From a virus: a stretch of DNA of 64,000 nucleotides. Of this stretch, positions 167 to 64,000 are shown piece after piece (the stretch's first letter is position 1; every line of letters begins with the position of its first letter). The notes under the pieces are model-generated. The model saw only the letters and a list, made by a program, of their open reading frames with translations, was not told the DNA's origin and ran no database searches. The position numbers and the translations under genes were made by a program. Location: the IMG/VR virus record IMGVR_UViG_3300045922_000167, positions 26,889 through 90,888 of that record. One strand, given 5' to 3'.

Positions 167-253
167 AATGTTATAAGTTATTTATTGTTTAGACGTTATT
201 TATTGTTTAGTTACTAAAAGTTTTTCTGTACTCTTACACTTCACTGAGAGATA

Positions 254-976
254 CTACTCATTCAAAGCGTAATCTAATTGAGCAAAAGATTGAGTTCTTG
301 GGTTTTGTATGTATTCTAATAATTTCAACGTAGCTGTATTAACAATTTCTTGATGTAGATGATCTGGTAATTCACAGTCTTTACTTTCTATTAAACTAAT
401 ACGATTAGGATATCTTAAATAAGTAAAATAGTAAGTTAAAGAATTAAAAACACTTAAAGGATCTTTACCAAAATACATTTCTACAAATTCTTCAGAAAAT
501 AACAACTTTGGTTCTTTAGGAGTAGGCTTCCAAAAAGGATCACTCATTAAAGTAGCAAAGTCATCATGTTGCGTTTGTCTAGGCCAAATACTATAAAACT
601 TTCCTATACAATTTTTATCTTCTACAACAAAATAACTTTTTAAGTAAAACATATATCGTTCAGATAATCTTGAATTATCTGATTTTAACACGTATTTACC
701 TAAAGCTACGTTAGATTCATCTTTAATAAACTTATCAAATGGTATTACATCAGTTACAACTAATGTACGTAGGTCATCAGTTCTTTTCTGATTTTGTTCA
801 AATCCTTTTTTATTAGTATTTGGATTACCATTATAATAAGTTTTAACTACAGTTAATTGAGAATCTGTAAGTATATCGTCTAATTCTTTTGTTTGAAAAG
901 ACGGCACTTGAAAACTAGATACGTTATCAAGTTTTAATCGTAATAAATTGTGCATTTCAAGTGCCGTCATTTTCAA
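254..976 (-). CDS. head-tail ring/adaptor protein (crAss-like)
   Basis: N-term MxAxEMHxxLRLKLDxxSS, GFEQNQKRTDDLRTLV, C-term YLRYP...CELPDHLHQEIVNTA typical of crAss-like ring proteins; downstream of MCP. Confidence 0.65.
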   Translation of the reverse strand: MKMTALEMHNLLRLKLDNVSSFQVPSFQTKELDDILTDSQLTVVKTYYNGNPNTNKKGFEQNQKRTDDLRTLVVTDVIPFDKFIKDESNVALGKYVLKSDNSRLSERYMFYLKSYFVVEDKNCIGKFYSIWPRQTQHDDFATLMSDPFWKPTPKEPKLLFSEEFVEMYFGKDPLSVFNSLTYYFTYLRYPNRISLIESKDCELPDHLHQEIVNTATLKLLEYIQNPRTQSFAQLDYALNE

Positions 977-1945: not shown

Positions 1946-1977
1946 ATGCGTGTTTAATTAATTAGTTCTTTGTTTTG

Positions 1978-3496: not shown

Positions 3497-4663
3497 TTAA
3501 AGTGTTATATCGTTTTTATTACTTAGTTTAAGAGGTGCAAAAAACATATCAACTTCATCTACTTCCATACTTTTTAGATTAGTAGGACGATTGGATGATT
3601 TATCTGCGTATTTACCTAAATTAGATATTGATCTAAACATTTCTTTTTTAGTATTTGTCGTTGCAGACTTAGTTAAATCTTTTTTAAGTTTTTCTATATC
3701 CCAATTGTATTTAGCGCCAATCATACTAATAAAAGCTACTTTTGTAGGATCAGACATATCTATATCTATCATACTCTCACCTTCTTCATTAACTGGTTCA
3801 AATACGTATCTGTAGATATTTTCAGCATCTACTTTTGATACGCTTAATCCGTTAATAGCTTTTACTGCATTTAAAGAATTCCAAAAGTTTGTTTGAAAAT
3901 TTTTAGTTCTTTCTTCAAACTCACGTAATTGAGTCTGACGTTGTCTTTCAATTTCATTTATTCTTTCAGCTTCCGCAGCAGCATACTGTTGACGTATTCT
4001 TTCTGCTTGTCGTTCAAGTAATCCCTGTTCGTCTTGAACAGCTATCATAGTTTCAATTTCTTCAGGTGTAATTCCAGGTTGAGTTTGCGCTAACCACATA
4101 CCATAAACTTCTGCATCACTATAATTCTGAAGCGTATTAGTAGCATTTTGCAAACTCATTATAAACTCTTCTTCACTACCACCATTACGTACAAATTGTT
4201 CCATTCGTTGCGCTAAAGAAGAAGCATATCTAGGTGTAGCACTTGTTTCTATAATAGAATCTAAAACTTTGAATATACCTTCTTCATCTCTAATCATGCT
4301 TTCATAGTTATCATCGTCTATTTGAAGACCATAACGTTCCATGATTGCAGGTATAAAAGTTTTATTAGCTATTACATAATCTTCTTCTTCTACTTCGTTA
4401 TTATTATTTTTAGATGAATATGAGTACTCAGTGGTTGATGAAGAGCTTAAAAAATTTTTAGATTTTTCTACTTCTCGTTCTTTCTTTTCATTTTCATCCT
4501 CATCTTCATCATCTAAACGAATATTATCTAATTTAGGAATTGGTTTACTAGGCGTAAATTCATCATCGTCTACTTCTAATAAATCTGCGCCTTGTTTTTG
4601 CGTTAAAGGGGCAAAGAAATCATCATCTTGCTCTTCAACATTATTTTGTACTAATCTTGCCAT
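3497..4663 (-). CDS. capsid scaffolding/assembly protein
   Basis: Acidic N-term and coiled coil, between portal and MCP; FFAPL motif at both ends. Confidence 0.6.
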   Translation of the reverse strand: MARLVQNNVEEQDDDFFAPLTQKQGADLLEVDDDEFTPSKPIPKLDNIRLDDEDEDENEKKEREVEKSKNFLSSSSTTEYSYSSKNNNNEVEEEDYVIANKTFIPAIMERYGLQIDDDNYESMIRDEEGIFKVLDSIIETSATPRYASSLAQRMEQFVRNGGSEEEFIMSLQNATNTLQNYSDAEVYGMWLAQTQPGITPEEIETMIAVQDEQGLLERQAERIRQQYAAAEAERINEIERQRQTQLREFEERTKNFQTNFWNSLNAVKAINGLSVSKVDAENIYRYVFEPVNEEGESMIDIDMSDPTKVAFISMIGAKYNWDIEKLKKDLTKSATTNTKKEMFRSISNLGKYADKSSNRPTNLKSMEVDEVDMFFAPLKLSNKNDITL

Positions 4664-7349: not shown

Positions 7350-9630
7350 ACTTAGTCGTATTTTTAATAAATTCCAAATTTAATCTATTAACTAATTCTT
7401 GCCTTGTTTCTGCATCATTTTTTTCTAAAATTTCTGTAACGTAAGGTACTCTTTGCAGTACTCCGTTTACAAATTCAAACCTAGAAAATTCTCTTTGAGA
7501 TGGAGCTATTTGTTGGTATTTCTTTATTTGCTCTAAATGCCATTTGTATAGTAGCGTAATACCAGCTGCCATTACAGCATCAAAGTTCTTTGCAGGATCT
7601 GGATCATATTTCGCTAATTCCGATAATAACTCCACAGAATAAATTTTATCACAATGATCTTCTACGTATGCTTGTAATGTAAGTAGTAACTTTTCCTTAA
7701 TTGGTGTAGTCATCGGAAGACCATAACGTTTAGATCTAATAGCTTTTGAATCAGGTACTATTGATTTAATCAATTGTACGGGTTGTACTATTAGTTTATG
7801 TAGCCAACCATGAAATTGAAATCTTTCGTACATATTATTACCTGAATCTTCATGTAATACTCTGGTATTATAGTAGTTTAATAACTTATAGACGTTGTAA
7901 TAAAATTCATCTTGAGTAGGTGGTCTATCTATATATTCTGCTACGATTGCATTTGAAAACTTATCGTCATCAATTCCAGTAGAGTTTTTAAAAATAAACA
8001 AAGCACCTTTCGAATCAGACGTAGACTGATCATAGTTATACGGATCACATCCAGCTGAATACGTAGTTAGCTCTACATTCTTTACAGGATGTTCGTACAC
8101 TTTGAACTTACCTGTACGACTAGGCACCCAGACGTATTGACCGTTTTCCTCTTTTATATCTCCACGCTGTTCCACTGAGTAATACTCCTTCAACGTCTTT
8201 AGCTTAGATAACTGTTCGTTAATCAAAGCTAAGTTGAACATATTTCCTCTCGTAATTAAGAATGCGTCTTTAGGTACGATAGGACGATACTGAAGTTCCG
8301 AGTACAATACTTTCCTATCAGGTTGCTTAGCTTTCTTTTGTCTTGTTTTTACTAAGTAGTCTAAAGCATCCTTGTAGTTTGTTACTTGAATGATAGTATT
8401 CGTTAATAGTTTATTTAACGCTTCAGTGACTATTAAACTCTTTGGGGTTAAGGCCCCAAGACTCATCCTACTATCATCATTCCTACTACTATCATTCGTA
8501 CTACTAGTACTACCATCATTCGTACTCCTATCATTCGTACTATTATCATTTGTAGTACTTAACTCATTTACGTCATTTTCGTTAGCTAACGATTCCAAAT
8601 TTTGTGCTACGTTAGGAACGTAATTTTCATCCTTAGCGTCTTTGAACTTATACTTCGTTATACATAATGAATTTACGTTATTTGACCTCTTGTTCGTTAG
8701 GAACTCCTTTAACGTTTTAGGACTTTTCTTCTGGTTTATACAATATTGTGCGGGAATGAACACACTAAATCTACCACGTTCTTCTACGTCATTCTCATCT
8801 ACAAACCTACTATCAAACGAAATCAAGTTATAATTGTCTGGATTGTAAAACATCGTACAAAAATCAGCTGTACCTTTCTCCATATCACCACCCGTACCTA
8901 TGATAATCGGTATACCTATCTGGGTATCGCCTGACATCCAACATTCCGTAGACGCATTGTAACATTCAATTAGATTTTTGTGCTTACCAGCTTCCTCAAA
9001 TATGTGAATTCTAGGACGTGTACCGTTAGCTGCCATTACGTTATTAGCGTAATTTCGTATCCAGATGATAGATTGATTACCTCTGATGGATTCTACGCCA
9101 CGTTCGTCCTTTACTTTATATCCAGATACTACCTGTTTGTTCCAATCTTCCTTTATATACTGTTGTTTTAACTCAGGCGGTAAGTCAGATAAGCCTATAC
9201 GTAACTTAGTTACAAAATTCACTAAGTCATTTTCTTCTCCAGCTGATATTAAATTCTGCTGATTCGCAAAAAACGTAAAGATATGAGCTATTTTAGCTGT
9301 CATAGAGTACGTTTTACCTGCACCACGTCCAGTAACTAAGCACATTCCTTTACGTTCTCTAGCTGCTTTAGCTACACATTCAAAAATATACCAATCTAAA
9401 TCACGTAAAGTAGGTAATCCTTTTGTCTTACCAGTCATTTTAGCGTTATCTACTTCCATCATCCAGAAGTTTGTGTAGAAAAATAAGTCTCCTGGGTAGT
9501 GGAAGCCATCTATCGTAATACCGTTCCTACAGTAATCTATTACTTCCTTCCAAAAAGGAAGATATTCAATAGATTCCTTAGGAATCTTAGGCAATCCTTT
9601 ATCCTTAAATTCTGTAAATGAATTAATCAT
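7339..9630 (-). CDS. terL: terminase large subunit (with about 110-aa low-complexity insertion)
   Basis: Walker A GRGAGKTY, Walker B IFEEAG, GTGGDM motif, RNase H-like GCDPY and NFDAV; start moved to ATG 9630 instead of TTG 9681. Confidence 0.9.
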   Translation of the reverse strand: MINSFTEFKDKGLPKIPKESIEYLPFWKEVIDYCRNGITIDGFHYPGDLFFYTNFWMMEVDNAKMTGKTKGLPTLRDLDWYIFECVAKAARERKGMCLVTGRGAGKTYSMTAKIAHIFTFFANQQNLISAGEENDLVNFVTKLRIGLSDLPPELKQQYIKEDWNKQVVSGYKVKDERGVESIRGNQSIIWIRNYANNVMAANGTRPRIHIFEEAGKHKNLIECYNASTECWMSGDTQIGIPIIIGTGGDMEKGTADFCTMFYNPDNYNLISFDSRFVDENDVEERGRFSVFIPAQYCINQKKSPKTLKEFLTNKRSNNVNSLCITKYKFKDAKDENYVPNVAQNLESLANENDVNELSTTNDNSTNDRSTNDGSTSSTNDSSRNDDSRMSLGALTPKSLIVTEALNKLLTNTIIQVTNYKDALDYLVKTRQKKAKQPDRKVLYSELQYRPIVPKDAFLITRGNMFNLALINEQLSKLKTLKEYYSVEQRGDIKEENGQYVWVPSRTGKFKVYEHPVKNVELTTYSAGCDPYNYDQSTSDSKGALFIFKNSTGIDDDKFSNAIVAEYIDRPPTQDEFYYNVYKLLNYYNTRVLHEDSGNNMYERFQFHGWLHKLIVQPVQLIKSIVPDSKAIRSKRYGLPMTTPIKEKLLLTLQAYVEDHCDKIYSVELLSELAKYDPDPAKNFDAVMAAGITLLYKWHLEQIKKYQQIAPSQREFSRFEFVNGVLQRVPYVTEILEKNDAETRQELVNRLNLEFIKNTTKYGY

Positions 9631-9752
9631 AGACGTGTTATTATTACTCAGTGGTGTATGAGAGAGGATTAAAAAAAGCAACAGCGTTCGGTTCGTTCCT
9701 TTCGTAGCTTTTTTTTCTTTTTTCCCCCCTCTAATCTACCACTGAGTACTAG

Positions 9753-10352
9753 TTACTCATTATTTTGCTTTTCTAACATTCCTAATATACCAGATTCTAT
9801 TAACGATAATTCCGCATTACCTCTAGATTTACCTGTTTTCTTATTTTCTACTTCAGCTTTAAGTTTCTTACCTAATTCTATTACTTTATCTAACTTAGTC
9901 ATTACGGTAACTACTGCATCTATGTTTTCCATAGTACATACATTATTATCTAATACCATCTGAATTTCCTCTATTTTCCTAAAGTAGGAATCTACCATTC
10001 GTTGTTCAGGTGTTACAAGTAAAGGTTTAACTATTTCACAAAAAGATTTGTACGTAGGATTCGTCAAGTACTCTTCTAATTTCTGATTATTTTGAAATAG
10101 TATCTTCTTTACTTCGTTACATCTACTTTCGTACGGGTATTTATAATACGGAGAATCTGGATCTTCAGTTAACGCAAAGTACTGAAGTAACTTATATCCA
10201 ATTTCTTTTTGATTCCAAGTAATTGGTTTAGTTATATTAACTTCGTTATCCTTTAATTCTTTAGGTAACGCCAATAACTTGTGAGTTATAGGTAGCAATC
10301 TAAGTTGATACGTTAACTCCGCTTCTTGTGTGTGATTAAATTCAAATATCAT
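9753..10352 (-). CDS. putative terminase small subunit
   Basis: Helical protein directly upstream of terL with C-term KSRGNAELS; ATG 10352 follows a TATATTTG promoter. Confidence 0.45.
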   Translation of the reverse strand: MIFEFNHTQEAELTYQLRLLPITHKLLALPKELKDNEVNITKPITWNQKEIGYKLLQYFALTEDPDSPYYKYPYESRCNEVKKILFQNNQKLEEYLTNPTYKSFCEIVKPLLVTPEQRMVDSYFRKIEEIQMVLDNNVCTMENIDAVVTVMTKLDKVIELGKKLKAEVENKKTGKSRGNAELSLIESGILGMLEKQNNE

Positions 10353-11499: not shown

Positions 11500-11700
11500 A
11501 GTCCTAACTAAGCCTGAGGGATTCGGGTGAGGGTTAGGTGCAGTGAGCGACCACTGTATAAATCAGAGTCGCAACGGAGCAATGACTCCATCCAACAGCC
11601 CACCACACGTAAGTGTGGTGGTGCGATGTTGGTAGCTCTCAGTGGTAGATGAGAGAGCATAAAAAATTCGTCTCCCAGCGCTGGACTGATTTCCAGTAAT
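11500..11700 (+). ncRNA. candidate structured RNA (multi-hairpin)
   Basis: Stems 11503-08/11533-38, 11547-51/11568-72, 11592-11608/11613-32 with GTAA (GNRA) loop, 11635-40/11653-58; no ORF. Confidence 0.45.
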
Positions 11701-13149: not shown

Positions 13150-13187
13150 AACCCCTCAACGTAGTGCACGGCGTTGGGGGATTTTTA
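13150..13187 (+). terminator. intrinsic terminator-like hairpin
   Basis: CCCCTCAACG-loop-CGTTGGGGG followed by ATTTTT. Confidence 0.5.
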
Positions 13188-13228
13188 ATCCTCTCTGTGC
13201 AACCACTGAGTGTTAATATCTTATTTCT

Positions 13229-13741
13229 ATGTGTGTAAAGATAAATAACAGATTAAGTTCCTACGAAGCCTACGTTAGGAACGTAAGGAACTTACTAATA
13301 GCTATACTCATCCTGTGTTCTTGTCGCCCATGCGAAAGGAACGTCAGGAACGATGTTATTCCTGTTAGTACTCAGTGTGAGATAAGAGAGATTAAAAATT
13401 TTATAGAATTAAAACATATCCTACAACGTTATGATATACCTTGTCAGGATATGTTCGTGAAAATAGCTATGTACGAAAGTGCATGGTTAAGTAGTAGTTT
13501 ACATGTTACGTACAATAATTCATTCGGTTGGTGTTATACTGAACATGAAGATATTTGTGCTAACGTGTATGGTAGCGCTCATTTTGCTTCTTACGAAAAG
13601 CAATTTGAGTTCATGGTTAAATGGGTTAACTTAAATCCTAAACGTCCCACCGAATCGTGTGAGGACTACTTTAGGAGAAGACATTACAATGTCGTTAACC
13701 CTAATTATTACAACATTTTAAGTAAAATCATAATCAATTAA
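13229..13741 (+). CDS. glucosaminidase/lysozyme-like (GH73-like) protein with N-terminal anchor
   Basis: IAMYESAWLSS...NNSFGW...FASYE...Y...NYY pattern of GH73-type muramidases; hydrophobic LLIAILILCSC segment. Confidence 0.55.
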   Translation: MCVKINNRLSSYEAYVRNVRNLLIAILILCSCRPCERNVRNDVIPVSTQCEIREIKNFIELKHILQRYDIPCQDMFVKIAMYESAWLSSSLHVTYNNSFGWCYTEHEDICANVYGSAHFASYEKQFEFMVKWVNLNPKRPTESCEDYFRRRHYNVVNPNYYNILSKIIIN

Positions 13742-17564: not shown

Positions 17565-18110
17565 ATGAAGCATTTAATTTTCCTCCTCTTACTCATCTCA
17601 CTGAGTTCTTGCGGAGTATTAGAAAAACGTTACTATAAAAGCTTAGTAACGTACGACAATTGCCTAAAGGTAGTTAATCCAGTTGTACTGGATATACCTT
17701 GTAAGGATACGATTATTACGCTGCCTACGTACAGTACGTTAATTAACGTACCTTTAAGAGATACGTTTATTGATAATACAATATGGTATCAATTACTAGA
17801 TTCTATTTTTACTTACAAAGATAGCTTAACTGAAGCTAAGTTATTGTATGATAAAACTACTAATAAGTTTAATCTATATGTACGACAACAGGAAAAAGCA
17901 TTTAAGGTAAAAGTAGCTGATGAATTAGCGTTATTAGACCAATACAACAGATTAAAACGTAACTATCAAATTTTATTAAACGATAGGAACGATTTAATCG
18001 CTCAACAAGCAAAAAAAGATGAAAAAAAGCTAACTAATTTAATTTATATAGCTGCTTTCATCTTGTCTTTGCTGATTATAGCTTTTATAACGTTTTACTT
18101 AAAACAATGA
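17565..18110 (+). CDS. lipoprotein with C-terminal TM helix (u-spanin-like architecture)
   Basis: MKHLIFLLLLISLSS-C lipobox; coiled coil; C-term LIYIAAFILSLLIIAFITFYL. Confidence 0.55.
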   Translation: MKHLIFLLLLISLSSCGVLEKRYYKSLVTYDNCLKVVNPVVLDIPCKDTIITLPTYSTLINVPLRDTFIDNTIWYQLLDSIFTYKDSLTEAKLLYDKTTNKFNLYVRQQEKAFKVKVADELALLDQYNRLKRNYQILLNDRNDLIAQQAKKDEKKLTNLIYIAAFILSLLIIAFITFYLKQ

Positions 18111-20161
18111 ATTATTTGATTACAAACACAAAAACGTTATTTGATGAAAATAACGGTTGGAAAATACTAAACGTAATTTCTCAAACAGAAACTACGATTA
18201 GTAGATTAGTAAATGTGTTACAATCTAGTAATATATATTATTTAGATACTGAAACTACTGGATTAGATCCACACCTTAATAGATTACTTTTAGTAACTAT
18301 TAGATCAGGTTACGATACCATAGTAATTGATTTTTCTAATTTAGGAGATAAACAAGAAGCTATTAAAGTCTTGTTAAATTCATATCTAACTAAAGAAGAA
18401 AAAACAATTGTATGGTTTAATGGTAAGTTTGATTACAAGTTTATGTTAAAGAACTTTGGTATTCATTTAACTAATCATTATGATTTGTTTTTAGCTCATA
18501 AAGCTATAACAAATGGGTTAGATGAACCAAATAGTCTTAAGGATGTAGTTAACAAATACTTAGGATTTTATATGGCTAAAGAAGAACGTACTGAATTCCT
18601 AAAGTATGATAAATCAACTTATTTACCTAAGTTATCTCATATACAGTACGCTGCAAAAGATGTAGACGTTCTTGAAGATTTGTACGAAATATTACGTAAG
18701 GAAGTAAGAGACAAAGAATTAACTCAAGTAGTTGATTTAGAAAATTCTGTTATGCCAGCATATGCTTTTATGGAATATACTGGAGTTCCTTTGGATATTA
18801 CGTATTGGCAAGAAAATATTATATCTAAATACCAAGCGTTAGCTGATATATGTTTAGATAATTTAACTAAGATAGCTCTCAGTGACCCTGCACTCTCCAA
18901 ATATAAAATAAAAAATCCTATCGTAAATTTATTTGGAGAACCAGATTACGCTATTTCTAGAAACGGTAAACCTTTAATAAGTAAGGAAGCCATATATCAT
19001 AGCATTAACTGGAATTCTAACCAGCAAGTGTTAGAAATAATGAAAAATGACTATGGTATTGAATGTAGTTACAAAATACAAGGTCAAGTAAAACAAGGCG
19101 TTAATGCCGATGTTTTACTTGCACATTGTAGCGAAGAATTTAAACACTCAGTGAGTGATGGAGACTTAAAAAAAGGTACAGAGACTGCGAGTAGTATATT
19201 TGAATGGTTGTACCTTTTGAAGAAAACTGAGAAGCTCTTGAGAACGTATGGACAAAATCTAATAGACATAATTAACCCAGTTACTAAACGTCTCCATTGT
19301 GAATTTAACCAAATGGGTACAGACACAGGAAGGGTATCTTCAAACAACCCTAACCTTCAAAACTTACCACGTTTGCAAGAATTTCGTTCAGGTATTAGAG
19401 TACATGGAGATGATAAATGGTTGATAACATTAGATTACGATGGTGCTGAATTACGAATCATAGCTGATGGAGCTGAAGAGCCTACTATGATTAGAGCTTT
19501 TAATGACGGTGAGGATGTTCACGCTTTCTTAGCTACTAAAGCCTATGGCGTTACAGTAACTAAGAAAGAAAACAAACATCTAAGAAATAATATGAAGACA
19601 GTGAACTTTGGATTAGCTTATGGGGCTGGTCCGTCTAAGTTTGCTGATATATTTGGTTCAGTAGAAAAAGCTAAAGACTTCTTGGATAACGTTTACTACA
19701 AGAACTTTCCTAAACTTAAAACGTTTTTTAATTCCTTAGCTGAATTCGGTCAAACTAACGGCTACATAACTACTTTTCCTCCAATAAGTAGAAAACGATT
19801 TTTTCCTAATCACGAAGAAATCGTAGAAAAAGCTAAAACGGACAAAGAATATCAAGCTAAGTTAGCTGCGATAGGTAGAGAATCTAAAAATACTCCTATT
19901 CAAGGTACTTCAGCTGATATAATCAAATTAGCTACTGCTACGTTATTTAACGAAATACTACGTAATAATATGTTAAATAACGTTAAAATAATTAACCAAG
20001 TACATGATGAATTAACTATTGAATTAAATGGATATTCATTAGAAGAAGCTAGATCTTTTGCTACTTGGATTAAAGGGGTTATGGTATATGCTGGCTCTTT
20101 ACAAATAAAACATGTCGTTATGGAAGTATCATACGACATAGACAAAATATGGGTTAAATAA
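18107..20161 (+). CDS. polA: family A DNA polymerase with 3'-5' exonuclease
   Basis: Exo I DTETTG, exo III YAAKDV, TGRVSSNNPNLQN, motif A DYDGAELR, motif B KTVNFGLAYG, motif C QVHDE. Confidence 0.95.
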   Translation: MNYLITNTKTLFDENNGWKILNVISQTETTISRLVNVLQSSNIYYLDTETTGLDPHLNRLLLVTIRSGYDTIVIDFSNLGDKQEAIKVLLNSYLTKEEKTIVWFNGKFDYKFMLKNFGIHLTNHYDLFLAHKAITNGLDEPNSLKDVVNKYLGFYMAKEERTEFLKYDKSTYLPKLSHIQYAAKDVDVLEDLYEILRKEVRDKELTQVVDLENSVMPAYAFMEYTGVPLDITYWQENIISKYQALADICLDNLTKIALSDPALSKYKIKNPIVNLFGEPDYAISRNGKPLISKEAIYHSINWNSNQQVLEIMKNDYGIECSYKIQGQVKQGVNADVLLAHCSEEFKHSVSDGDLKKGTETASSIFEWLYLLKKTEKLLRTYGQNLIDIINPVTKRLHCEFNQMGTDTGRVSSNNPNLQNLPRLQEFRSGIRVHGDDKWLITLDYDGAELRIIADGAEEPTMIRAFNDGEDVHAFLATKAYGVTVTKKENKHLRNNMKTVNFGLAYGAGPSKFADIFGSVEKAKDFLDNVYYKNFPKLKTFFNSLAEFGQTNGYITTFPPISRKRFFPNHEEIVEKAKTDKEYQAKLAAIGRESKNTPIQGTSADIIKLATATLFNEILRNNMLNNVKIINQVHDELTIELNGYSLEEARSFATWIKGVMVYAGSLQIKHVVMEVSYDIDKIWVK

Positions 20162-22586: not shown

Positions 22587-23071
22587 GTCATCTGCATTAT
22601 TGCTTGACTATATTAGCAAGCGGATTACAAACTGACATTCATAATGCTTTAGACCTAATATTAAACTTAAAAAAAGAGTTTGATACTAAAGAAGTAATGT
22701 TAGGATTAAATAATTATGAAAAAGTTAAAGAATATGCTGATAACTATTTTATATTTCAAGATATAGATATATCAGCATATGCTATGTATCACATGTTAGT
22801 AAGAATATATCCTCAGACTACAAGTCAAGGTAGATTACTAATTACAGACTATGAGAAGTGTATAGCATTATTAAATAATATCATTAATAGCGGAACTATA
22901 TTGCCTTTAGAACTTGAAGAAAAATGTAAAAAGTACATAAGATACATGCTAAACACTCCAGGTCAAGAAGTTTACATAAAATCATTATACGAATGGCTTA
23001 AAGGTAAACATTATAATGATGTAATACCTGAAGTAAAACGTTCAGTTTCTGGTTTTGACAATGCCTTGTAA
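22550..23071 (+). CDS. hypothetical replication-associated protein
   Basis: Directly upstream of DnaB-like helicase; YP...YIKSLYEWL C-term resembles phage initiator/loader domains. Confidence 0.45.
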   Translation: MDNNGSITKINVSHLHYCLTILASGLQTDIHNALDLILNLKKEFDTKEVMLGLNNYEKVKEYADNYFIFQDIDISAYAMYHMLVRIYPQTTSQGRLLITDYEKCIALLNNIINSGTILPLELEEKCKKYIRYMLNTPGQEVYIKSLYEWLKGKHYNDVIPEVKRSVSGFDNAL

Positions 23072-35582: not shown

Positions 35583-35621
35583 AGTTAACACACTCTCACT
35601 GAGTGTTAATATTAACATAGG

Positions 35622-44267: not shown

Positions 44268-45395
44268 CTACACAACTGTTAAGCCTATTAATTGAACGTT
44301 ACGTACTCTAAAAGAACCACCGTTACCTCTAGCTGAAATAGTAACAGTACTACCTCCTATAGCGAAACCAAAGTTTATAATCTGCATGTGTGTAAATTGT
44401 CTCCAAACACTATCGTTAGGAAAATTTAGACTTTCGTACATAATAGGATTACTTCCTGGAGGAGGGTTATTAATAATATTGCTTACATTTACTATTAATG
44501 ATAAATTCCTATTTGCTCCAGGTGAAACTTGTCTAGCCTCAAAAGAAAGTATAAGAACAGTAGGTAAAGAAGTTACATTAAAACCTAAAGGATTAGCTAC
44601 TAAAGTAAATACACCTGTACCTATGTCAGATAAATTCCCTTCAAACGTTACTGGAGCAAAAGATGATATTACATTAAAATTAGATAAAGGTGTTTGCCAT
44701 ACTACGTTACCTAAGTTATTTGTAGTTAAGACTTGTCCTGATGTACCTGGAGTTATACTCAGTGGGTTGGATGTAGTACCAGAACCTGAAAGAGGAGTAG
44801 TAGTATTTACATTTAATTCTAACGGTAATGAAGGTGTACCATTGCCTGATAATCCCCCACCTGGAGCTATTTGTACTTGACCGTTACCAGTCTCATCAGC
44901 ACCCCATTGTACTACACCGCCTATTGTCTTTAGTACTTGCCCATCGCTACCTGGCTCTATGTATAAAGGATTAGTAAACGTACCTAAACCTTGTAAAGGG
45001 CCTAGAACATATTGATTGAGTATGAGTGGATTAGTTGGCGTACCTAAGCCTATTAATCCGTTATTAGCGTCTTCAAAGAGTATTCCTGCTTCACCAGGAG
45101 GTCCTTGCGGTCCCTGAGGTCCAGGAGGACCATCATTTCCTGGAGGTCCTTGCAGTCCAGGAAGTCCTTGAATACCTTGAGGACCTTGAGGTCCAGCAGG
45201 TCCAGGCGGTCCTGGATCTCCCTGTGGTCCTTGTGGTCCTTGTGGACCAGGAGGTCCTACACCACCTCCACCTTGTTCTAACGCTGAGCTTATGTAATGA
45301 AATAACTTAATTAATACATTACGCTCAGGTGTATTAAAGGATGCAAGTTCGTAGGCTTCAGACTTAATCTTTCTTATTAGATCTTGTAAATTCAT
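44268..45395 (-). CDS. collagen-repeat fibre protein
   Basis: About 20 G-x-y triplets (GPQGPPG), GQVLxT..G.V.W repeats, beta-rich C-terminal domain. Confidence 0.8.
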
Positions 45396-45927
45396 CTTTT
45401 AATTCTTTAGCTTGTTCGTTTTGTAACTCTTCAAAATCTTTTCTCTCTTTCTCTCTCTCCACTGAGTCTTTCTTATACAAATCTATTTTACTTGTAAGAA
45501 ACCTAGCTAGTTTATTATCTATATATCCAAGTAACGAAAGATTTACTATAAACGAAATCATCAGTATAACTACAATAGGAACAAATACAGCACCTGGTAG
45601 CCAAGCTAAGTAATCATTTCCTTTGCTAAATTGAAAGGATAACGTTAGCAGAATAGTATAAGCAAGTAACTTCTTAACTATTCTAAGTACTTTACGTGTT
45701 TCATAAATACCTTGCTTCCAAGCGTACATACTACCCGTAATAAAATCACATACTATTAACGCAATTAGCGTATAGTAATGCCCAGATGGAGACCAAACAT
45801 ATAAATCTATTTGGTCATTTAACCAATAAAAGAATCCACCTAGTATAGCAGCTAAGCTATCTATAAGTAGCCAATTTTTTCTATGGAATCCAAAAATTAT
45901 GTCTAATTCTTCGTATAGGTATTTCAT
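45364..45927 (-). CDS. holin
   Basis: 3-4 TM segments, DFITG motif, [11 protein letters not shown], charged C-tail (phage holin 4-like). Confidence 0.7.
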
Positions 45928-53746: not shown

Positions 53747-55024
53747 TTAAATATTAAATGTTAGTATATGAGGTTTAACTTGAAAAGCAGTAGAAGTAGA
53801 GCAACAATTACAATCTTTTATCCATAGTCTGTATAAACCCTCAGTGAAAGTGTCTATATAAAAAGGATTAGTAGGTAATTCTTCATACTCATCCATTATA
53901 GGATCTATTTTATATTTATATCCCGTAGGTGAATTATCACAATCTTTGCATCTCTCACTACCACCAGTAACTACTATTTCTACTGTAATTTTATCTGTAC
54001 AACTAGGACATTCTGGTGGTAGTACATTAACAACTGCGCTTAACTCGCTTGCTTCTAATATAGTATATGTGCAAGTACTTTTACACCCCACAGGCGAAGT
54101 TATCGTTAAGTTGTAAGTTCCTGGTTCTAAATTAGTTATGTCTTTATCGTTGGAAATGAATCCATTAGGTCCAGTCCAACGAAAGGAAGGATTTTCTCCG
54201 TAGTTAAGTATTGGATTTAATGTAATAGTACCATCTTTCTTTTGGTAGCAACTTTCGTGAGAAATAACACCACCACAAGGCGGAATTAAAGGATTTGGTA
54301 CTACAATAGTAAAAGGAGATACGTTATTATTCGCATCTCTAATTTGTATTATGTATATACCAGGACGTAAAGTAGTAGAATATTCTGTGTTACTACCCAC
54401 AGTAGTTACTGAACTTACGTAAAGATAACCTGGAGGTGGTGTTATAGGCGTTATATTACTTAATAAATCTTTAGGTTGAACATAAATAGGTGGACAACAC
54501 GATACTAATTCTTTGTAAGGAAGGGTAACTAATGAAGAAGGTGATATTGAAGTAGTAAGCGTTGCACAACATCCAGCTATGTTTTTATCCACCATTAATG
54601 TTATTATAGGACTTGGTAAAGAAACATCGTCTACAAACAATATAGACATAGGTTTGTATCCTAATGCTATTAACGCTGGGTTAGTAACGTTTTCTATATA
54701 TGACTTTAACGCTAAAGCGAAGTCCCTACCAGTAGCGTAACTAGCAGTTGGATGTGGTGCAAATTGACCTAAGTTTAATTCAGGAAAGTATTTTATCGCA
54801 CCACAATCTATACGTATACCACCTGTTATTGTATCTGGTGGTGTAGGTGTTTCTACTTTGAATATAAAAGAAGTATAATTCTCATCACATGCTGTTACAG
54901 GATTTAACGATGATTGTACATATATTTCATATGTATAAGGAGGAGAACCACCAAACGGACCAAGAAAAGTCAATATCCCTAAATCATTAGGACATCTTGG
55001 AGTACTTAATTTTAACTCAGCCAT
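53747..55024 (-). CDS. SprB-repeat protein
   Basis: HESCYQKKDGTITL...FRWTGPNGF...DITNLEPGTYNLTITSPVGC is a canonical SprB-like repeat. Confidence 0.75.
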   Translation of the reverse strand: MAELKLSTPRCPNDLGILTFLGPFGGSPPYTYEIYVQSSLNPVTACDENYTSFIFKVETPTPPDTITGGIRIDCGAIKYFPELNLGQFAPHPTASYATGRDFALALKSYIENVTNPALIALGYKPMSILFVDDVSLPSPIITLMVDKNIAGCCATLTTSISPSSLVTLPYKELVSCCPPIYVQPKDLLSNITPITPPPGYLYVSSVTTVGSNTEYSTTLRPGIYIIQIRDANNNVSPFTIVVPNPLIPPCGGVISHESCYQKKDGTITLNPILNYGENPSFRWTGPNGFISNDKDITNLEPGTYNLTITSPVGCKSTCTYTILEASELSAVVNVLPPECPSCTDKITVEIVVTGGSERCKDCDNSPTGYKYKIDPIMDEYEELPTNPFYIDTFTEGLYRLWIKDCNCCSTSTAFQVKPHILTFNI

Positions 55025-55025
55025 T

Positions 55026-56405
55026 TTACTTACAAGGTTTGTCTTTAATTACGTCAGGACCAAAAGTAATACCAAAACACTCGTATTTATATAAACCGCA
55101 TGGTAGGTTATTCTTTACCACATAATCAACATATAAAGAAAACTTTTTAAGTTCTTCTTGTTGAAATAACAAAATATTTTGGCTTCTAATTATATTATCA
55201 CGAACTTCTCCAAAATATTTTATACAAGCAGCTGATTGATTAGTTACACGTAGAGAATCTAATGTTTCTTGTATTTGTTTTATGTTAGCATTAACAGTTG
55301 CATTCGAAAGAAATGCTTCTTTTGCAGTTTCAAAAGTTTCAGCAGTATTTACTACAATAACTGCTTCTTTAACTACTTTAAGACTATTTCCATACTCACG
55401 TACAAAATCATTATATTGATTAGCAGCATTAGATTCTTTAATAGCATTAAATACCGTATTTGTAGATATTACTACGTTTTTATTTGGTGTTGGGGAAGTA
55501 GGGTTTAATACACTACTAATTGGGGTTAGTATTGTCGTTAAATTAAACCCATCAGCAAGTCTTAATAAAACAGGTTCATCAGACACAATAGGTTGTATTT
55601 TTTGAGTTACTTTAATCCATTTAGAACAAGTTTGATTAAGACCATCCGTTACTTCTACGTATATCCATCCCCAACTTTGGTTAGGTACAAATTTTAATGC
55701 TACTGTGTTTAGCGTTTTATCTCCTGATATAAGAACTGGATTTTGTGGAGGTTTTGGAGAAGATGATACAGCTGGTGGAGGTAGATCAAAATTAGTAGTA
55801 GCTAACTTAGCTGAAAAGGCTGTATCCTCAGGGTCATACCATTTAATGGTATAAGGTGGATACCCATATACAGGTTTTATAGTTAGTTTTGGTGAGTTAA
55901 TGGTTACGTAACTATCACCTGTAATAGGTGGTCTATCGTAAGGTAGTGTTTCGTAGTACTCAGTGTTAGTATTTGCGTAATTTATTGATGGATGATTTAT
56001 ATTGTAGCCAACAGGACGTTGAGTTAAGTATCTTTGTATATTATCCTCTGCCACTGAGTACACCATACAAGACATAGGTACGTAAGCAGATACAGAAAAC
56101 GTAGCTACCCATTGGCATTCACCATCTTTTTTATTTGATATTAATATACTATATCCAGTACCTATTGGATACGTCTCTTCTGCACCTGTGTCAGTTGTAC
56201 CTTCTAATCCAGTAGACCATTGATAGTAATACGTTCTACTATTGTTAGCGAATTTTAATATGACCTTTGCTGGTTGATTATTTAATGAAGGTTGTGCTTC
56301 AATTGTAAATTCAGGTTTTATCCTATTACAATCTAAACCAGAAGGTTCTCGAAATTCACTAGGTTCTAAGTCTGGGCAGCAACTATTTAATGAAAATGGA
56401 TCCAT
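55026..56405 (-). CDS. tail-region protein with degenerate SprB/Ig-like repeats and helical C-term
   Basis: YYYQWSTG; GYPPYTIKW...VEVTDG. Confidence 0.55.
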   Translation of the reverse strand: MDPFSLNSCCPDLEPSEFREPSGLDCNRIKPEFTIEAQPSLNNQPAKVILKFANNSRTYYYQWSTGLEGTTDTGAEETYPIGTGYSILISNKKDGECQWVATFSVSAYVPMSCMVYSVAEDNIQRYLTQRPVGYNINHPSINYANTNTEYYETLPYDRPPITGDSYVTINSPKLTIKPVYGYPPYTIKWYDPEDTAFSAKLATTNFDLPPPAVSSSPKPPQNPVLISGDKTLNTVALKFVPNQSWGWIYVEVTDGLNQTCSKWIKVTQKIQPIVSDEPVLLRLADGFNLTTILTPISSVLNPTSPTPNKNVVISTNTVFNAIKESNAANQYNDFVREYGNSLKVVKEAVIVVNTAETFETAKEAFLSNATVNANIKQIQETLDSLRVTNQSAACIKYFGEVRDNIIRSQNILLFQQEELKKFSLYVDYVVKNNLPCGLYKYECFGITFGPDVIKDKPCK

Positions 56406-58467
56406 TGTTATTCGAGCTATTACAAGTTATATACGATTTAGATTTAGGTATAGGTGTAATACCACAACCATTACATAGGTCAACCATGCGTTTAATTCCT
56501 ATTTGAGTTTCACGTAGGAATTGCAAATACTTATCATCAAAGTAAAATCCACCATTTGTACCATTTTCATACAATAAAATGTTAGTAACGAAATTACTTG
56601 CAGCTATTAAGTACTGGTTTAATTTATGAAATTCAGCTTCATTAACTATATGATTTTCTTGTTGACTACAAGGATCTGGACATGGTACACATAAAGATTT
56701 CGTTAACATTTCTTTGTAGCATCTTAATACAGTACAGAATTCATACAATACTAATTTTCTGTTTATAACTATTACTTCCTTACCTGTAATTGGTTGTATA
56801 TAAGACACTACGTAGCTTACTATATAAACATTATCTATTGGTAAGTCTATGTTAAAACTAGAATTACCTGAGTAGTTTTCAATAATTAATGTATTTATTA
56901 ACTGTTCGTCTGGAGTAAATACTTTTATTTCTACTTTACAGTTATCAACGTAACTTTGAACATCAGATAGTAAAAACTTTCTACAATCCGTACGACTCAG
57001 TGAGACTGAGTCGCCTACATAAACTTCTAAGCAATCAATACACGTTCCGCAACAATTAGAAACTTCTATACATACAGTATGTTTACCTTGTTCTTTAAAT
57101 ACGTAATTTAAGGGAACGTTAGAAGCGTTTGTTCTTGGTATAGTTTCTACTACACCACTAGGACTTGTTACTTTATATACAGTAGATAATTGAGGATTAT
57201 TTAATTCAGGACAACAAGTAACTTTAGGTGCGGTTACAGAAATAGGTTGAATTAAAGCGCTAGTATAATTTTTATCTTTATTTAATAGTTCAAATCCTAT
57301 ATAAATATTTTTTGGATTTAACGAAGCTGCATAACTTGGTTTTAATAAAGCAGTATTATAATTGTCAGCAAAGCTTAAATTTGGTCTTGGTGTTATGTTA
57401 GATTTATCTATTTTTTCTAAGTTAGGGTCACAATCTAAGCAAGTAAATACTTGTCTTGGTAGCGTTATTCGCATTTTGCGTTCCCTAGTTGCTGGGTTTA
57501 TAATATCTGGTTCAGAAATGTCATCTATAATTATTCCAGGTATTAAGTTTAAACTGGCTTTTATTGTTTCATAAATATGGTAAGTATTAGCTACTGCGTT
57601 TGCGTCACTAATAGGAACGTCAGGAAAATAATAAGGTTGATAATTAATTACGGTATTTCCACAAACACTAATACCAAAATAAAGTTTATACGCTATGTTA
57701 TTTAAACTGTTCCAAATACTACTAGATTTAATAGTTAAATCAAGTACTATGGCTGAATCATCCATAGTACAATTATCTACTGCTGCACAATTTACATTGT
57801 CATGTTTTATATTAGGTATTATTTTCTGGGTAGAATTTACAGGTACACAAATAGTATTTACTTCAGCTTCGTTACAACAAACATTATTTTTTTGAAATGA
57901 AATAGACGCTTTAGGTAATGGATCTTCAACAGTAATTACTTTACTCGTTTGTACTGTACCTAAATCGTTACTTACTATTTGAGTTATTAACTGATTGCCA
58001 GAAGCTGGTAAGTTTACAGTAACAGATTCTTGATTTACAAATTCTCCTGGATATGCAGGTTGTACTAAATAGCTAACACGCATAAAAGAAGAATTTTGCG
58101 TGTTATAGATTCTAATTGTAAGACTACAAGGATCACGTATAACGTAAAATGAACTAACTATATTAGGTTGATTTTGAACGTAATTTTGATAAACAACCCA
58201 ATTAAAGTCATTAAGTACAAAACTATTCCCACTAACAGGACAAGGTATAAATACTTGACGATTTATGTATATGTTCGAGTTGTGGGATATACGAATGACA
58301 TAAGACACACCACATTGTATGTCTAACCCTTGCAATGTGTAACTACCTGTAACACCTGAAGTAGTAGAGTCTATTAGCGTTCCGTTAATAGTCAATAATT
58401 CAACCGTACATGGGACTGGATTGTTTAGCTCATTTAAAACAGATCCATTGATTATTAGGTTAGACAT
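56383..58467 (-). CDS. Ig/PKD-like multi-domain Cys-rich tail protein
   Basis: INGSVLNE...TTS.VTGSYTL (carboxypeptidase-regulatory-like); YVFKEQGKHTVCIEVSNCCG (PKD-like). Confidence 0.55.
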   Translation of the reverse strand: MSNLIINGSVLNELNNPVPCTVELLTINGTLIDSTTSGVTGSYTLQGLDIQCGVSYVIRISHNSNIYINRQVFIPCPVSGNSFVLNDFNWVVYQNYVQNQPNIVSSFYVIRDPCSLTIRIYNTQNSSFMRVSYLVQPAYPGEFVNQESVTVNLPASGNQLITQIVSNDLGTVQTSKVITVEDPLPKASISFQKNNVCCNEAEVNTICVPVNSTQKIIPNIKHDNVNCAAVDNCTMDDSAIVLDLTIKSSSIWNSLNNIAYKLYFGISVCGNTVINYQPYYFPDVPISDANAVANTYHIYETIKASLNLIPGIIIDDISEPDIINPATRERKMRITLPRQVFTCLDCDPNLEKIDKSNITPRPNLSFADNYNTALLKPSYAASLNPKNIYIGFELLNKDKNYTSALIQPISVTAPKVTCCPELNNPQLSTVYKVTSPSGVVETIPRTNASNVPLNYVFKEQGKHTVCIEVSNCCGTCIDCLEVYVGDSVSLSRTDCRKFLLSDVQSYVDNCKVEIKVFTPDEQLINTLIIENYSGNSSFNIDLPIDNVYIVSYVVSYIQPITGKEVIVINRKLVLYEFCTVLRCYKEMLTKSLCVPCPDPCSQQENHIVNEAEFHKLNQYLIAASNFVTNILLYENGTNGGFYFDDKYLQFLRETQIGIKRMVDLCNGCGITPIPKSKSYITCNSSNNNGSIFIK

Positions 58468-58496
58468 ACTCAGTGGTAAATGAGATAATAGAAAAA

Positions 58497-61800: not shown

Positions 61801-64000
61801 AACTTTCTGATAGCTGAAGACTATTTGTTGATTCTTCATTTTCAGTAGGTACTGGTACATTATTTAATTCTACCGAAATATTAGATGTAGGATATAAAAT
61901 ACTTTCAACAATAGCAGAGTTTAAATTAGAAGAATTCAAACCGCTTGTTAAGTAAGTCATTATAGTACTTGAAGAAAAATTGTTCTTAACTATAGTTCGT
62001 ACACGGTTGTCTATTATTTTCCTAAAGTCTGTAATGTTAGTTATTTTAGCTGTTTTACCTAAATGTACTGGTATATTTAATTTTGGTACCATTTGAACTT
62101 TGCTGCTAAAATAATTAACAGTAGAACCATTAGCAAACATAGCATCTGCTCCTTTCATGTAGCTTACCTCTACGTTGTAGCTAGCTTTTCTATTTACTGA
62201 TGGTCTTGCAATAGGCTTTTCTTTTAATATAGCTTTAGCTAACCCATCAGCGAATTCTTCTAATGTCAAATCTTCTGCATTATACTCATCCCAAAAGTTA
62301 TTGTAGCTTTTATATCCAAACTTGTTAAATAAATCCTTAAAGAAATTCCAAACAGACTTAACTATTCTCAGTATAAACTTGTCAGATTTATTTTCTAGTA
62401 AATACTCTTTCACTGAGTCATCCTGCACAGCAAAAAAGCCAATAGCAGTTACCATAGCTTCTTCTACTTGTGCTTCATAAGTCAGTTCGCTATAATTTTC
62501 TTGAACTGTTTTAAAAAAGTTAGTTGTAACTACTTGAGAAGCTAACTTTTCATAAAGTTTAGGATTCAGATTTTTTAAAGAATCAACAACTACGTGAGCT
62601 ACTTCATGTATAGGAGTTTCTAAAGATACAGTATCTGAGTTTAAATAAATAACACCTTCTTTTCTAGAATATAATCCTTTTACATTAGGATTGTAATTAT
62701 GTTTTAGTAAATAGTCTGTATCTACTGTAACAATAAGAACTCCAGGTATTAACTTATTTAACTTTTCAGATAGTTTTTGTAGCTGAACTTTGTTTATTTC
62801 TGGATCTCTAAAAGTCTCATCTACAAATATTTTTTGTGCAGATGTTTCTTTTTGATTTTCTTTAGATTTTTCTTTTTCTTTATTTTTAGCTTGTTCTTCT
62901 TTACCGTTATGATAAGCTAAACCTTTTCCTTTATATTTAGGATTTCTAAATATTGCATCTTTAATATCTTTAAAAGTCTTTTTAGTATAAGTAGCTCCTT
63001 CTTTGTAACTATAATTAAAAAGACCAGTTTCAAATGTTGCAAATTGAGAAGCAAAATCTTCTAAATACTCGTCTTTAAATCTGTCTCCTTCAAACGCAAT
63101 TTTTTTACCTTCTTCTAAAATAGTAGATAAAAACTCTGCGTATTCACCATGAAAGAATTTAGTAAAATTAGTTTGTTGTAAACTAGTACCTTGAGTTAAA
63201 ATACCATAGTAATATAAAGCTTTAGGAAAATTATCAAGAACATAAAGTTGTTTTTCAGTTAACTCATTTCTTAAGTCTAAATATTTTGGGTCTTCATTTG
63301 TTCTTAAATCATCAAGCTTTTCTTTAAGAGATTCAATACTAGCAGCTATAATATTTTCATTTGCCTTACTACGAATTTTACTCTTAAAAATAAATATATC
63401 TTGTCTGTTAAATTCTTTGTTAAAATCAGAATCTAATTTTTGTAAATTGTTTAAGAAGTAATTACCTAAATTTAAATCTTTTAATTTATTTATAACTACT
63501 TCTACGTTATGTAAAAAGTTACCTTCACCATGAGTTTCACCAAAATCGTTTACGTCTTTATTTTGTACTAAACTAATTAGATAATTATTTATTGATGAAA
63601 TATATCTATGATCAAATTTAGCACCTATACCATGTTTAACTTTTACATTTAAGTTTCCTAAAGCTTCTATTACTCTTCCGTAAGTATTAGAATTTGGTAT
63701 CACTTTACCATCTTTAATTTCATTTTTACCAAATACCCATAATTCTTGTAATGGTAATAACGAATCCATCATACCAGCTAACATTTCTGCATATTCTGGA
63801 GTTTTTATTGGCATTTCTTTACCATCTATTATAGTAGGAGTAACTTCATGTTTACCTGTTTTTGGGTTATAAGTTATTTCACCAAAAATAATTTTAAATA
63901 TTTTAGATAATTGTGGGTTTTCAATTAAAATTTTATTGTATTTTTCTATCATTTTTATTTGATCTGTATAACTAGGGGAATACCCATTAGTTAAAGAGAA
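58808..64000 (-). CDS. giant virion/ejection polyvalent protein with zincin HEXXH domain (5'-truncated by window)
   Basis: Frame is open from 63952 to the window edge; GVIYLN...TPIHEVAH...EEAMV metallopeptidase-like motif; helical C-term with a hydrophobic segment. Confidence 0.7.
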   Translation of the reverse strand, partial: FSLTNGYSPSYTDQIKMIEKYNKILIENPQLSKIFKIIFGEITYNPKTGKHEVTPTIIDGKEMPIKTPEYAEMLAGMMDSLLPLQELWVFGKNEIKDGKVIPNSNTYGRVIEALGNLNVKVKHGIGAKFDHRYISSINNYLISLVQNKDVNDFGETHGEGNFLHNVEVVINKLKDLNLGNYFLNNLQKLDSDFNKEFNRQDIFIFKSKIRSKANENIIAASIESLKEKLDDLRTNEDPKYLDLRNELTEKQLYVLDNFPKALYYYGILTQGTSLQQTNFTKFFHGEYAEFLSTILEEGKKIAFEGDRFKDEYLEDFASQFATFETGLFNYSYKEGATYTKKTFKDIKDAIFRNPKYKGKGLAYHNGKEEQAKNKEKEKSKENQKETSAQKIFVDETFRDPEINKVQLQKLSEKLNKLIPGVLIVTVDTDYLLKHNYNPNVKGLYSRKEGVIYLNSDTVSLETPIHEVAHVVVDSLKNLNPKLYEKLASQVVTTNFFKTVQENYSELTYEAQVEEAMVTAIGFFAVQDDSVKEYLLENKSDKFILRIVKSVWNFFKDLFNKFGYKSYNNFWDEYNAEDLTLEEFADGLAKAILKEKPIARPSVNRKASYNVEVSYMKGADAMFANGSTVNYFSSKVQMVPKLNIPVHLGKTAKITNITDFRKIIDNRVRTIVKNNFSSSTIMTYLTSGLNSSNLNSAIVESILYPTSNISVELNNVPVPTENEESTNSLQLSESLNKVLEIKSFNLNNFLNSDKRQKLLESISYRNYDSEISSVELINTVNDTEGSIIKITFKNGTVSLYSTLLESSSANDLLIDGVIGNTNIPLTIHNLVSLDLASLATEMKEANPDLLFNDIGIIAFHESEKQVSFNIESINLDTALIALKKDNLSSLSFFNMNPEIAEVVKLYNQSKDEDKTPQLLTELLTDLLHKTTATINSLAHSLHDHSSDLAYYTRLHKELFKILNDNVVYNPKTGKFVEMDAGQSRKVRTASRLDISFWSKLLDPKVVDNAVIQQLSQRKVNAELQRNSVLSTIKNAHVKLLKNLEQEYKTSENAKFIKYGEDYGVALTDFMWKVSNGVKLLEFETDPDIIATWSPAQQEYHKFITSVLQGLKEDKPIQFTINGNVSTISIGGKLKGLKAEHLVPSFAPKKYKKNVISNIINVGFGNAHNIGYYDEEAGSQIPLFYLSAKENDNLDMYDRNVADIFDAFVGRAVHKIHLQPIANLYEAVGIVFNLEKDINGNPIFKNFREYVQDLISVHFKETAYQSTLQLFGSEKIDSSGKSLAQRVDEGIDKFLRITTIAGISSFLGGNPVNAVKNLLTGIYYNISTSVAEKLAGYGDTDHFAYVGTKDRLVFTASEYAEAKTIAVRDMLKYIFTGETNKTVELAKIIGVSFDYKLLTAAKERNIDNKINLNWLFVLNHYFDLVVQPAYMIAALKHENIWDDYEFKDGALVFTGNGRSQDPQFRNARDKSYNFSIQSKQGLLSHYGLNSQDVTRITTNLGRLHGTQRLDDQSAAVKHAFFRYVSAMKKWLVPALNALIRPAHLDLNSAKLIEKEIEGEIEYLYNIEIKEGQIASIYDAVTQLPMLHNIVELIRRIRGLHTDDRKPLTKYQYYNLYKFSMNVGLFALIVFWMTSKSDDDDEEENILLKNLMKGLKAEVGFGYDPEDFIGLGNQATPVAFSYFGQIIHSLKKSIERDNIQHLVQVLPARSILKPILQDEDLNSKKKKSDTNEE

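Follow-up and report, generated by a model that had tools for sequence, protein, structure and literature searches.

The E. coli primase DnaG prefers the trinucleotide CTG. The PrimPol of NrS-1 is an example of a phage primase that can demand a template word of 8 nt; it requires 5'-TTTGGTTA-3' or GTG on its template and initiates for the most part opposite the first base on the 5' side of this site, and ORF904 of pRN1 likewise starts outside its GTG (PMC8718748). Site-specific nick sites are another class of dispersed words in phage DNA, such as TACT/RTGMC of phage tf with 14 sites and almost no near-variants, the bipartite CGAC-N5-CCTA/CTCCGG of phiKMV, and R/GCGCRGG of T5, which needs extra context, and all described phage nick sites lie on one strand (PMC3517423). 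Chi is frequent in lambdoid phages without Rec modules, with 23 copies or one per 1.86 kb in phage LLS, and is found overwhelmingly in one orientation (PMC12315714). The DNA analysed here is a stretch of 64,000 nt (the window) from the IMG/VR virus record IMGVR_UViG_3300045922_000167, positions 26,889 to 90,888, in which a composite signal of about 35 nt with the invariant core CACTGAG is dispersed over both strands. This feature is not accounted for by any described family and belongs with the dispersed, lineage-specific recognition words in phage DNA.

The signal is real and is under strong selection as a DNA word. CACTGAG occurs 28 times in the window (12 on the plus and 16 on the minus strand), at exactly the coordinates listed in a preliminary description of this DNA, where about 3 copies had been expected; the expectation was 3.41 +/- 1.78 copies, and the maximum in 100 dinucleotide shuffles was 9. 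T or A follows 27 of the 28 copies, as had been stated. The virus record assembles as a circle of 90,761 bp (90.8 kb) through a 127-bp exact terminal overlap, and this whole genome, with a GC content of about 31%, holds 34 copies, of which about 3 would be expected by chance; CACTGAG is its most over-represented 7-mer (z=17 in an order-2 Markov model and z=6.9 in a maximal-order model). The enrichment also survived the codon-preserving nulls by which the preliminary description had proposed to check it, because synonymous-codon shuffling within genes left 7.4 +/- 1.5 copies and codon permutation 6.9 +/- 1.3, both numbers including about 6 intergenic copies untouched by the shuffling. Neither protein sequence nor codon usage therefore explains the excess. 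About 80% of the sites are located within genes, in all reading frames, about half of them sense and half antisense, and about 5-7 fall between genes or immediately before a start codon even though only 3.5% of the genome is non-coding, which bears out the intergenic excess noticed before. These mixed frames and orientations, the survival under the synonymous shuffle and the position in variable protein segments without insertion agree with the earlier view of selection on DNA and not on a peptide motif.

Alignment of the 34 copies showed that the information spans positions -21 to +13 around the core. A phased T-run (TTTTT) occupies -21 to -17, with T at -19 in 32 of 34 copies, followed by any base at -16 and by T at -15 in 23 of 34. 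The spacer is poor in G, which makes up 53 of 714 positions (7%) over -21 to -1 as compared with 16% in the background, while C is doubled, and the base at -1 is a pyrimidine in 31 of 34 copies (C17/T14/A3/G0). Downstream, the core is followed by T (25/34), R, Y, T (24/34) and A. At least four of five T in the phased run were found at 27 of the 34 exact cores and at 5.8% of random positions, and one-mismatch cores carried such a run at the background rate (5/68). We call an exact core with at least four of five T at -21 to -17 a full site; there are 27 in the genome, 13 on the plus and 14 on the minus strand, and 12 copies in the window have the strict form TTTTT-N16-CACTGAG, for which the expectation was 0.03. 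The upstream flank thus holds the information content that the preliminary description had asked for. Its CTCTC-like tract stands as a G-poor pyrimidine spacer, and the strongest feature of the flank, the phased T-run, had escaped notice. The centres of T-run and core are about 22 bp apart, i.e., two helical turns, and the core shows a weak dyad symmetry or mirror about +7|+8 (2.74 versus 1.98 of 8, z=3.8). Ten sites folded as single-stranded DNA were nearly unstructured and had no common fold, with minimum free energies of 0 to -4.6 kcal/mol. A hairpin between CTCTC and GAG was ruled out as it was inconsistent from site to site. The Rfam search of the window gave no family match; this, the lack of a common fold and the antisense position of half of the sites rule out an RNA element.

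The site within the TerL gene (antisense, residues ~497-510) aligns without a gap to 25 homologues and lies in a variable linker, in line with the loop-like protein segments pointed out earlier, and the spacer sequences differ from copy to copy. Each site therefore arose on its own through substitutions, either synonymous or in variable regions, rather than by the spread of a mobile insert, and an insertion of the Rickettsia palindromic element (RPE) or miniature inverted-repeat transposable element (MITE) type was ruled out on the same grounds. A sequencing-adaptor artefact, considered on account of a loose likeness between the spacer and a transposase mosaic end, was also rejected, because the spacers vary, the sites are in frame and their residues recur in independently assembled variants. 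The alignment of the DNA polymerase to solved structures begins only just after site 19147. Strain variants are present as short JGI/IMG and Logan contigs, and over 11,087 aligned residues their proteins show 231 substitutions. The motif codons had one event in 314 instances, where about 6-7 would be expected at the per-variant rates, and the core codons none in 75 instances against 1.6 expected; this one event, in the pyrimidine tract of site 28297, replaces Ser by Pro (T to C). All 12 motif codons are intact even in the variants that diverge most, by 11-13% in gene 13229 and by 6% in TerL. The strain variation fits purifying selection on the motif.

Outside this genome the signal was hardly seen. 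The 80 distant crAss-like IMG/VR loci contain 29 cores in 954 kb, one-tenth of the density found here, and no comparable private word was found in them. When IMG/VR was scanned exhaustively with the G-free-spacer pattern, 16 single matches turned up on 16 contigs, as compared with 4 in this genome. In 401 evenly drawn Bacteroidota genomes the composite (the bare heptamer was not the unit counted, and the sample need not include the host of the phage) reached at most 5 matches in any one genome and did not exceed the reversed-pattern control, and no excess of the kind known for uptake signal sequences (USS) or DNA uptake sequences (DUS), which have hundreds to thousands of copies in a host genome, was seen among them. 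Absent from these three sets, the signal is therefore private to this phage lineage. The 58 relatives with loci of at least 12 kb yielded no convincing private word on both strands. The only borderline both-strand candidate is GGAGTAG in the IMG/VR crAss-like relative L022 (4700-16936), with 10 copies (5 on each strand) in 18 kb versus 1.1 expected, and this locus also has several codon-like words with a similar enrichment. AGGGTCT in L039, L043 and L048 was discarded as an analogous word, being restricted to one strand and lacking a flank, which indicates a codon effect.

The strand on which the sites lie is not random. Of the 27 circular transitions between full sites, 22 change strand (permutation p=0.0027), as do 24 of 34 when all copies are counted (p=0.023). 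Ignoring strand, the spacing could not be told from random, with a coefficient of variation (CV) of 0.90 (p=0.39), and per strand it is evener than chance (CV 0.71 versus 0.92 under permutation of the strand labels, p=0.0014), with 13-14 full sites on each strand or one in ~6.7 kb. In each of the three closest pairs, at distances of 93, 93 and 167 bp, the two members lie on different strands. Two of these pairs, the core pairs 9647/9746 and 55959/56058, each measure exactly 93 nt from start to start, which is probably a coincidence because they have nothing else in common in sequence and 55959 lacks the T-run. The orientation of the sites has no relation to the direction of transcription, so that the distinction from stoperators and classical Chi drawn in the preliminary description holds. 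Its description of the element as orientation-independent does not, given the alternation, the even spacing per strand and a flank that is asymmetric between strands (G 7% versus 16%, pyrimidine at -1), and these features favour a strand-specific reader over the proposed strand-blind site for a nucleoid or decoy protein. The exact core, the asymmetric, unstructured and G-free flank, the pyrimidine at -1, the strand-aware spacing and the privacy of the signal all speak for a reader of one strand at a time, for which sites would be needed at intervals on each strand. They argue for strand-specific machinery (replication, nicking or recombination) rather than for a strand-blind duplex binder or a gene-expression signal.

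Among such readers we tentatively favour, at less than even confidence, the DnaG-type primase of the phage, for which the 35-nt element would be a single-strand start site. The replication module of the genome consists of a family-A polymerase (PolA), a DnaB-like helicase, a Dda-like superfamily 1 (SF1) helicase, a DnaG/Toprim-type primase, a RecT-like annealase, a PD-(D/E)XK nuclease and a RusA-like resolvase. The primase (27920..29011, plus strand; phrog_12622, E=4.7e-35; Toprim_2), whose link to the motif we infer, is the candidate reader, and the DnaB-like replicative helicase (23055..24011, plus strand; PF03796, E=1.6e-29) is its presumed partner. In the proposed mechanism the element would be read strand-specifically on single-stranded phage DNA during replication, with CACTGAG as the recognition word at the 3' side of the template. 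Synthesis would start at or just 5' of this word, opposite the pyrimidine at -1, to give a purine-first primer, and copying of the G-free, C/T-rich tract would yield a purine-rich, C-free primer. Such a primer on a pyrimidine template may form an unusually stable hybrid, which would help a genome of 31% GC in a hot spring. Forks might cross the genome either way (RecT-like, nuclease and RusA-like genes are present), each strand would then need its own evenly spread sites, and alternating orientation would follow.

The primase reading was put first because the pyrimidine at -1 gives a purine start, the flank templates a purine-rich primer and NrS-1 provides a precedent. A primase site should be spread over both strands, as it is here (13 plus and 14 minus, evenly per strand), should template a purine at the start, with which the bases at -1 are consistent if synthesis begins at that position, and should lie in an unstructured template, as the folding energies and the depletion of G showed; a cognate primase gene is also present. 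The core contains CTG, and a signal private to the lineage is what would be expected for a co-evolving enzyme and site. As in the described primase sites, the word would be a single-stranded template word needed on both strands, and the start at or just 5' of the word in NrS-1 is matched by the pyrimidine at -1; they differ in that a phased G-free flank, a T-run and visible genome-wide selection are found here. The N-terminal zinc-ribbon region of the primase (27920-28220) keeps its outline (HPSF..., WKDHSTGESGNVF) and has no cysteines, and its template-reading domain is therefore atypical. That the phage has its own start-site code for Okazaki fragments or primers, a long composite single-strand signal evenly set on each strand and read by a zinc-less primase of the DnaG type, is a more doubtful proposal.

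Several points weigh against a primase as the reader. Known DnaG-family primases read trinucleotides or at most pentanucleotides (T7 gp4, GTC-based), and the signal, a 7-mer with a 20-nt flank, is far longer than such sites. The precedent for a long word, NrS-1, is a PrimPol of the archaeo-eukaryotic primase (AEP) superfamily, whereas the enzyme here is of the Toprim type; no AEP was found in the genome, and no family could be detected for the 821-aa orphan by PolA. For the initiation of Okazaki fragments the full sites are sparse, with one in ~6.7 kb of each strand, and ordinary priming must therefore take place at other positions as well. No role is assigned to the T5 run in the priming model, and the shortage of full sites in the giant virion-protein open reading frame (ORF), 2 of 27 versus 6.1 expected (p=0.04), is not predicted by a pure replication role. 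The tests of alternation and evenness were chosen after seeing the data, and the comparison of variants was made at the protein level, with low power and on samples that are not independent.

A phage nickase that cuts the motif strand, and so cuts both strands alternately, is an unlikely reader and would make the element a counterpart of the nick sites of T5, tf and phiKMV. The consensus of such sites is exact and asymmetric, is specific to a lineage and recurs at scattered places within genes (PMC3517423), and the element matches them in its invariant core and lack of one-mismatch sites, in being private to the lineage with tens of copies, and in its composite bipartite build, which it has in common with phiKMV. 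The nick sites of those phages lie on one strand, whereas here the sites are on both strands in alternation (13 plus and 14 minus full sites, 12 plus and 16 minus copies in the window), and DNA with cuts on opposite strands at distances of 93 and 167 bp would break easily at hot-spring temperatures. No HNH nuclease was found in the genome, where the PD-(D/E)XK recombination nuclease is the sole nuclease candidate, and the pyrimidine at -1 and the G-free tract would have no role in nicking. A Chi-like "self" tag for a host RecBCD/AddAB-type or a phage helicase-nuclease is improbable to a high degree. The element has in common with Chi of the Rec-less lambdoid phages LLS and MD8 an exact short word at about one per 2 kb, selected inside genes (PMC12315714); with one copy per ~2.7 kb its density is like that of Chi-rich lambdoid phages. 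If the genome is circularly permuted, with ends arising anywhere, both orientations would be expected, in keeping with its assembly as a circle, and evenness on each strand is what protection from both directions requires. In LLS and MD8 it is the host's word, it has one orientation and no flank, and Rec genes are lacking, whereas this phage uses both strands equally and has its own RecT-like annealase, PD-(D/E)XK nuclease and RusA-like resolvase. Known Chi words are also bare words of 5-8 nt that lack a 20-nt phased flank, whereas such a flank is present at 27 of 34 copies here, and the composite was not enriched in the sampled Bacteroidota (the bare core was outside that count, and the host may not be among them).

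A strand-blind duplex binder and a gene-expression signal agree less well with the arrangement of the sites. IHF-type footprints measure ~35 bp, which matches the extent of the signal, and a duplex-DNA site for an architectural or regulatory phage protein, with the A-tract and the core on one helix face and possibly an asymmetric dimer as reader, would suit the two helical turns from T-run to core and the weak dyad symmetry; many orphan proteins are candidates. Such a protein does not predict a spacing that is random when strand is ignored and ordered when it is considered, its total intolerance of core mismatches would be unusual, and no convincing IHF/HU, sigma or helix-turn-helix family was detected in the genome, so that we regard it as improbable. 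The only IHF/HU hit (E=0.02) fell in a doubtful ORF, the neighbouring 92-aa ORF being Cys-rich and unrelated, and the helix-turn-helix candidates of the preliminary description (35099-35536, 22550-23071 and 25571-26266) had no family match. The least probable of the readings considered takes the reverse complement (TA-CTCAGTG, purine start) as compact promoters from which a phage RNA polymerase would make short purine-rich RNAs, i.e., primers or antisense RNAs. In favour of this, the site has the size of a promoter and is strongly conserved, the composition of the flank gives a purine at the putative +1 and an initial transcript poor in C, and four intergenic sites lie 1-20 nt upstream of start codons in direct orientation. 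Half of the sites, however, are antisense inside genes, and no sigma-70 factor was found in the genome. The stoperators of cluster A mycobacteriophages, which are oriented with transcription and mostly intergenic, resemble the element, as do the middle and late promoters of crAss-like phages, in being dispersed asymmetric sites of 13-35 bp with tens per genome; here about 80% are within genes and no relation to transcription is seen. The virion RNA polymerase of phi14:2 transcribes single-stranded DNA, its promoters being unknown, and the early transcripts have no common motif, while the middle and late promoters of crAss-like phages are sigma70-like, intergenic and sense (10.1101/2020.03.07.982082), which is not the arrangement seen here. 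A base-modified (Z) genome or a methylation-linked site was rejected because no PurZ and no N6/N4 or C5 methyltransferase was found in the genome.

The element amounts to a second, DNA-level code laid over about 20 unrelated genes. Its cost, in terms of the codons and amino acids that these genes can use, is measurable, which implies an essential reader. If the primase is the reader, lagging-strand initiation can be hard-wired by sequence, and the sites would give a handle on the replication of crAss-like phages, whose DNA metabolism is almost unstudied. A primer-start code, if true, would be an adaptation for reliable priming of an AT-rich genome at high temperature and the first genome-wide, sequence-defined system of lagging-strand initiation. 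Nicks on both strands or a self-tag, if either were the explanation, would represent a new form of the systems concerned. In hot-spring metagenomes the exact private word can also serve as a practical marker by which the phage lineage is followed.

The full sites in the first part of the window begin with 221..255 (plus strand, T-run 5/5), which is intergenic and antisense to the flanking minus-strand genes, and 4420..4454 (minus, 5/5), which is sense within gene 3497-4663. The gap-free TerL site described above is 8152..8186 (plus, 4/5), and 9640..9674 (minus, 4/5) lies 16 nt upstream of the probable TerL ATG (9630; called protein 7339-9630), 93 nt from the intergenic opposite-strand site 9719..9753 (plus, 5/5). 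Site 11631..11665 (minus, 5/5) falls in an ORF-poor, GC-richer early region. Site 13183..13217 (plus, 4/5) lies 18 nt upstream of the ATG of gene 13229-13741, and 13364..13398 (minus, 5/5) is antisense in this glucosaminidase-like gene, with 12 of 12 motif codons kept in the variants diverged by 11-13%. Site 17578..17612 (plus, 4/5) is sense and close to the 5' end of gene 17529-18110. The family-A DNA polymerase gene carries two antisense copies, the full site 19140..19174 (minus, 5/5) and a core with a weak T-run at 18871..18905 (minus, 3/5). Two helicase genes follow, with 21500..21534 (plus, 5/5) sense in helicase 21366-22586 and 23499..23533 (minus, 4/5) antisense in the DnaB-like helicase. 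Site 28276..28310 (plus, 5/5), sense in the primase linker FSPSSLPTEYS, is the one whose pyrimidine tract holds the sole variant change.

Further along, 31030..31064 (plus, 4/5) is sense in gene 30677-31108, 33817..33851 (minus, 5/5) is antisense in the Dda-like SF1 helicase, 34499..34533 (minus, 4/5) is antisense in ThyX, and 35576..35610 (plus, 5/5) is intergenic between convergent genes. Full sites in sense orientation occur in gene 39577-42342 (40806..40840, minus, 5/5) and gene 43625-44275 (44068..44102, minus, 4/5), and a core with a weak T-run (44751..44785, minus, 3/5) is sense in the tail-fibre gene. Site 45439..45473 (plus, 4/5) is antisense in the holin gene. Two cores look like chance orphans; 55959 (55952..55986, minus, T-run 1/5) is probably a chance copy, and 53840 (53833..53867, minus, a weak T-run of 3/5, then G) is a doubtful site. 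The remaining full sites are 56031..56065 (plus, 4/5), antisense in gene 55026-56405; 56989..57023 (minus, 4/5), sense in gene 56383-58467; 58462..58496 (minus, 5/5), intergenic, the end of its core 1 nt before the ATG of the same gene; and 62390..62424 (plus, 4/5), antisense in the giant virion-protein ORF.

The terminase, portal and major capsid proteins of the phage fall into crAss-type PHROG families, and the gene blocks are clean under translation table 11, with 96% of the DNA covered by coding sequence. The metagenomes from which the phage DNA came are of hot-spring or microbial-mat origin. The closest portal protein among the 5.8 billion proteins searched was 34% identical, a single-protein portal scan of IMG/VR gave no match, and crAss-like contigs within bacterial assemblies were equally distant from this phage. 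The 821-aa orphan (15047-17512) directly upstream of the DNA polymerase has no relative in Pfam, PHROG, PDB or ESM-Atlas, and the same 5.8 billion proteins contain a single homologue, a strain variant with 96% identity; the possibility that it is a PrimPol was rejected, as no family, PDB or Atlas match was obtained.

From 58808-64000 of the window through the contig junction to genome position 1-15375, a stop-free frame of 6,821 codons was found once the 127-bp overlap was removed, and the 5'-open ORF at the window end and the 15.4-kb ORF at the genome start are therefore probably a single gene of ~20.4 kb. The region 10400-13200 of the window, at the divergence point of the gene blocks, has few ORFs and a GC content of 39% versus 31%, and contains three motif sites and strong hairpins, e.g., ccaccacac-ttac-gtgtggtgg directly downstream of site 11638; it may be an origin or an early control region. 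A collagen-like repeat (45085-45260) in the tail-fibre gene 44268-45395 was the sole DNA match to GenBank phages in the 8 kb searched, resembling the tail fibres of Liberibacter, Flavobacterium and Kosakonia phages at 70-84% (DNA level). In the protein encoded by 31407-31994, residues 96-175 have a weak Pfam match, below the cut-off, to the DNA mimic Ocr (E=0.0037). Genes for the metabolism of deoxynucleoside triphosphates (dNTPs) lie at 24904-25509, 32005-32769 and 34248-35102 and comprise a dCTP deaminase-like protein, a MazZ-like dATP/dGTP diphosphohydrolase domain (PF18909, E=5e-28) and ThyX, a set by which the phage likely edits the dNTP pool.

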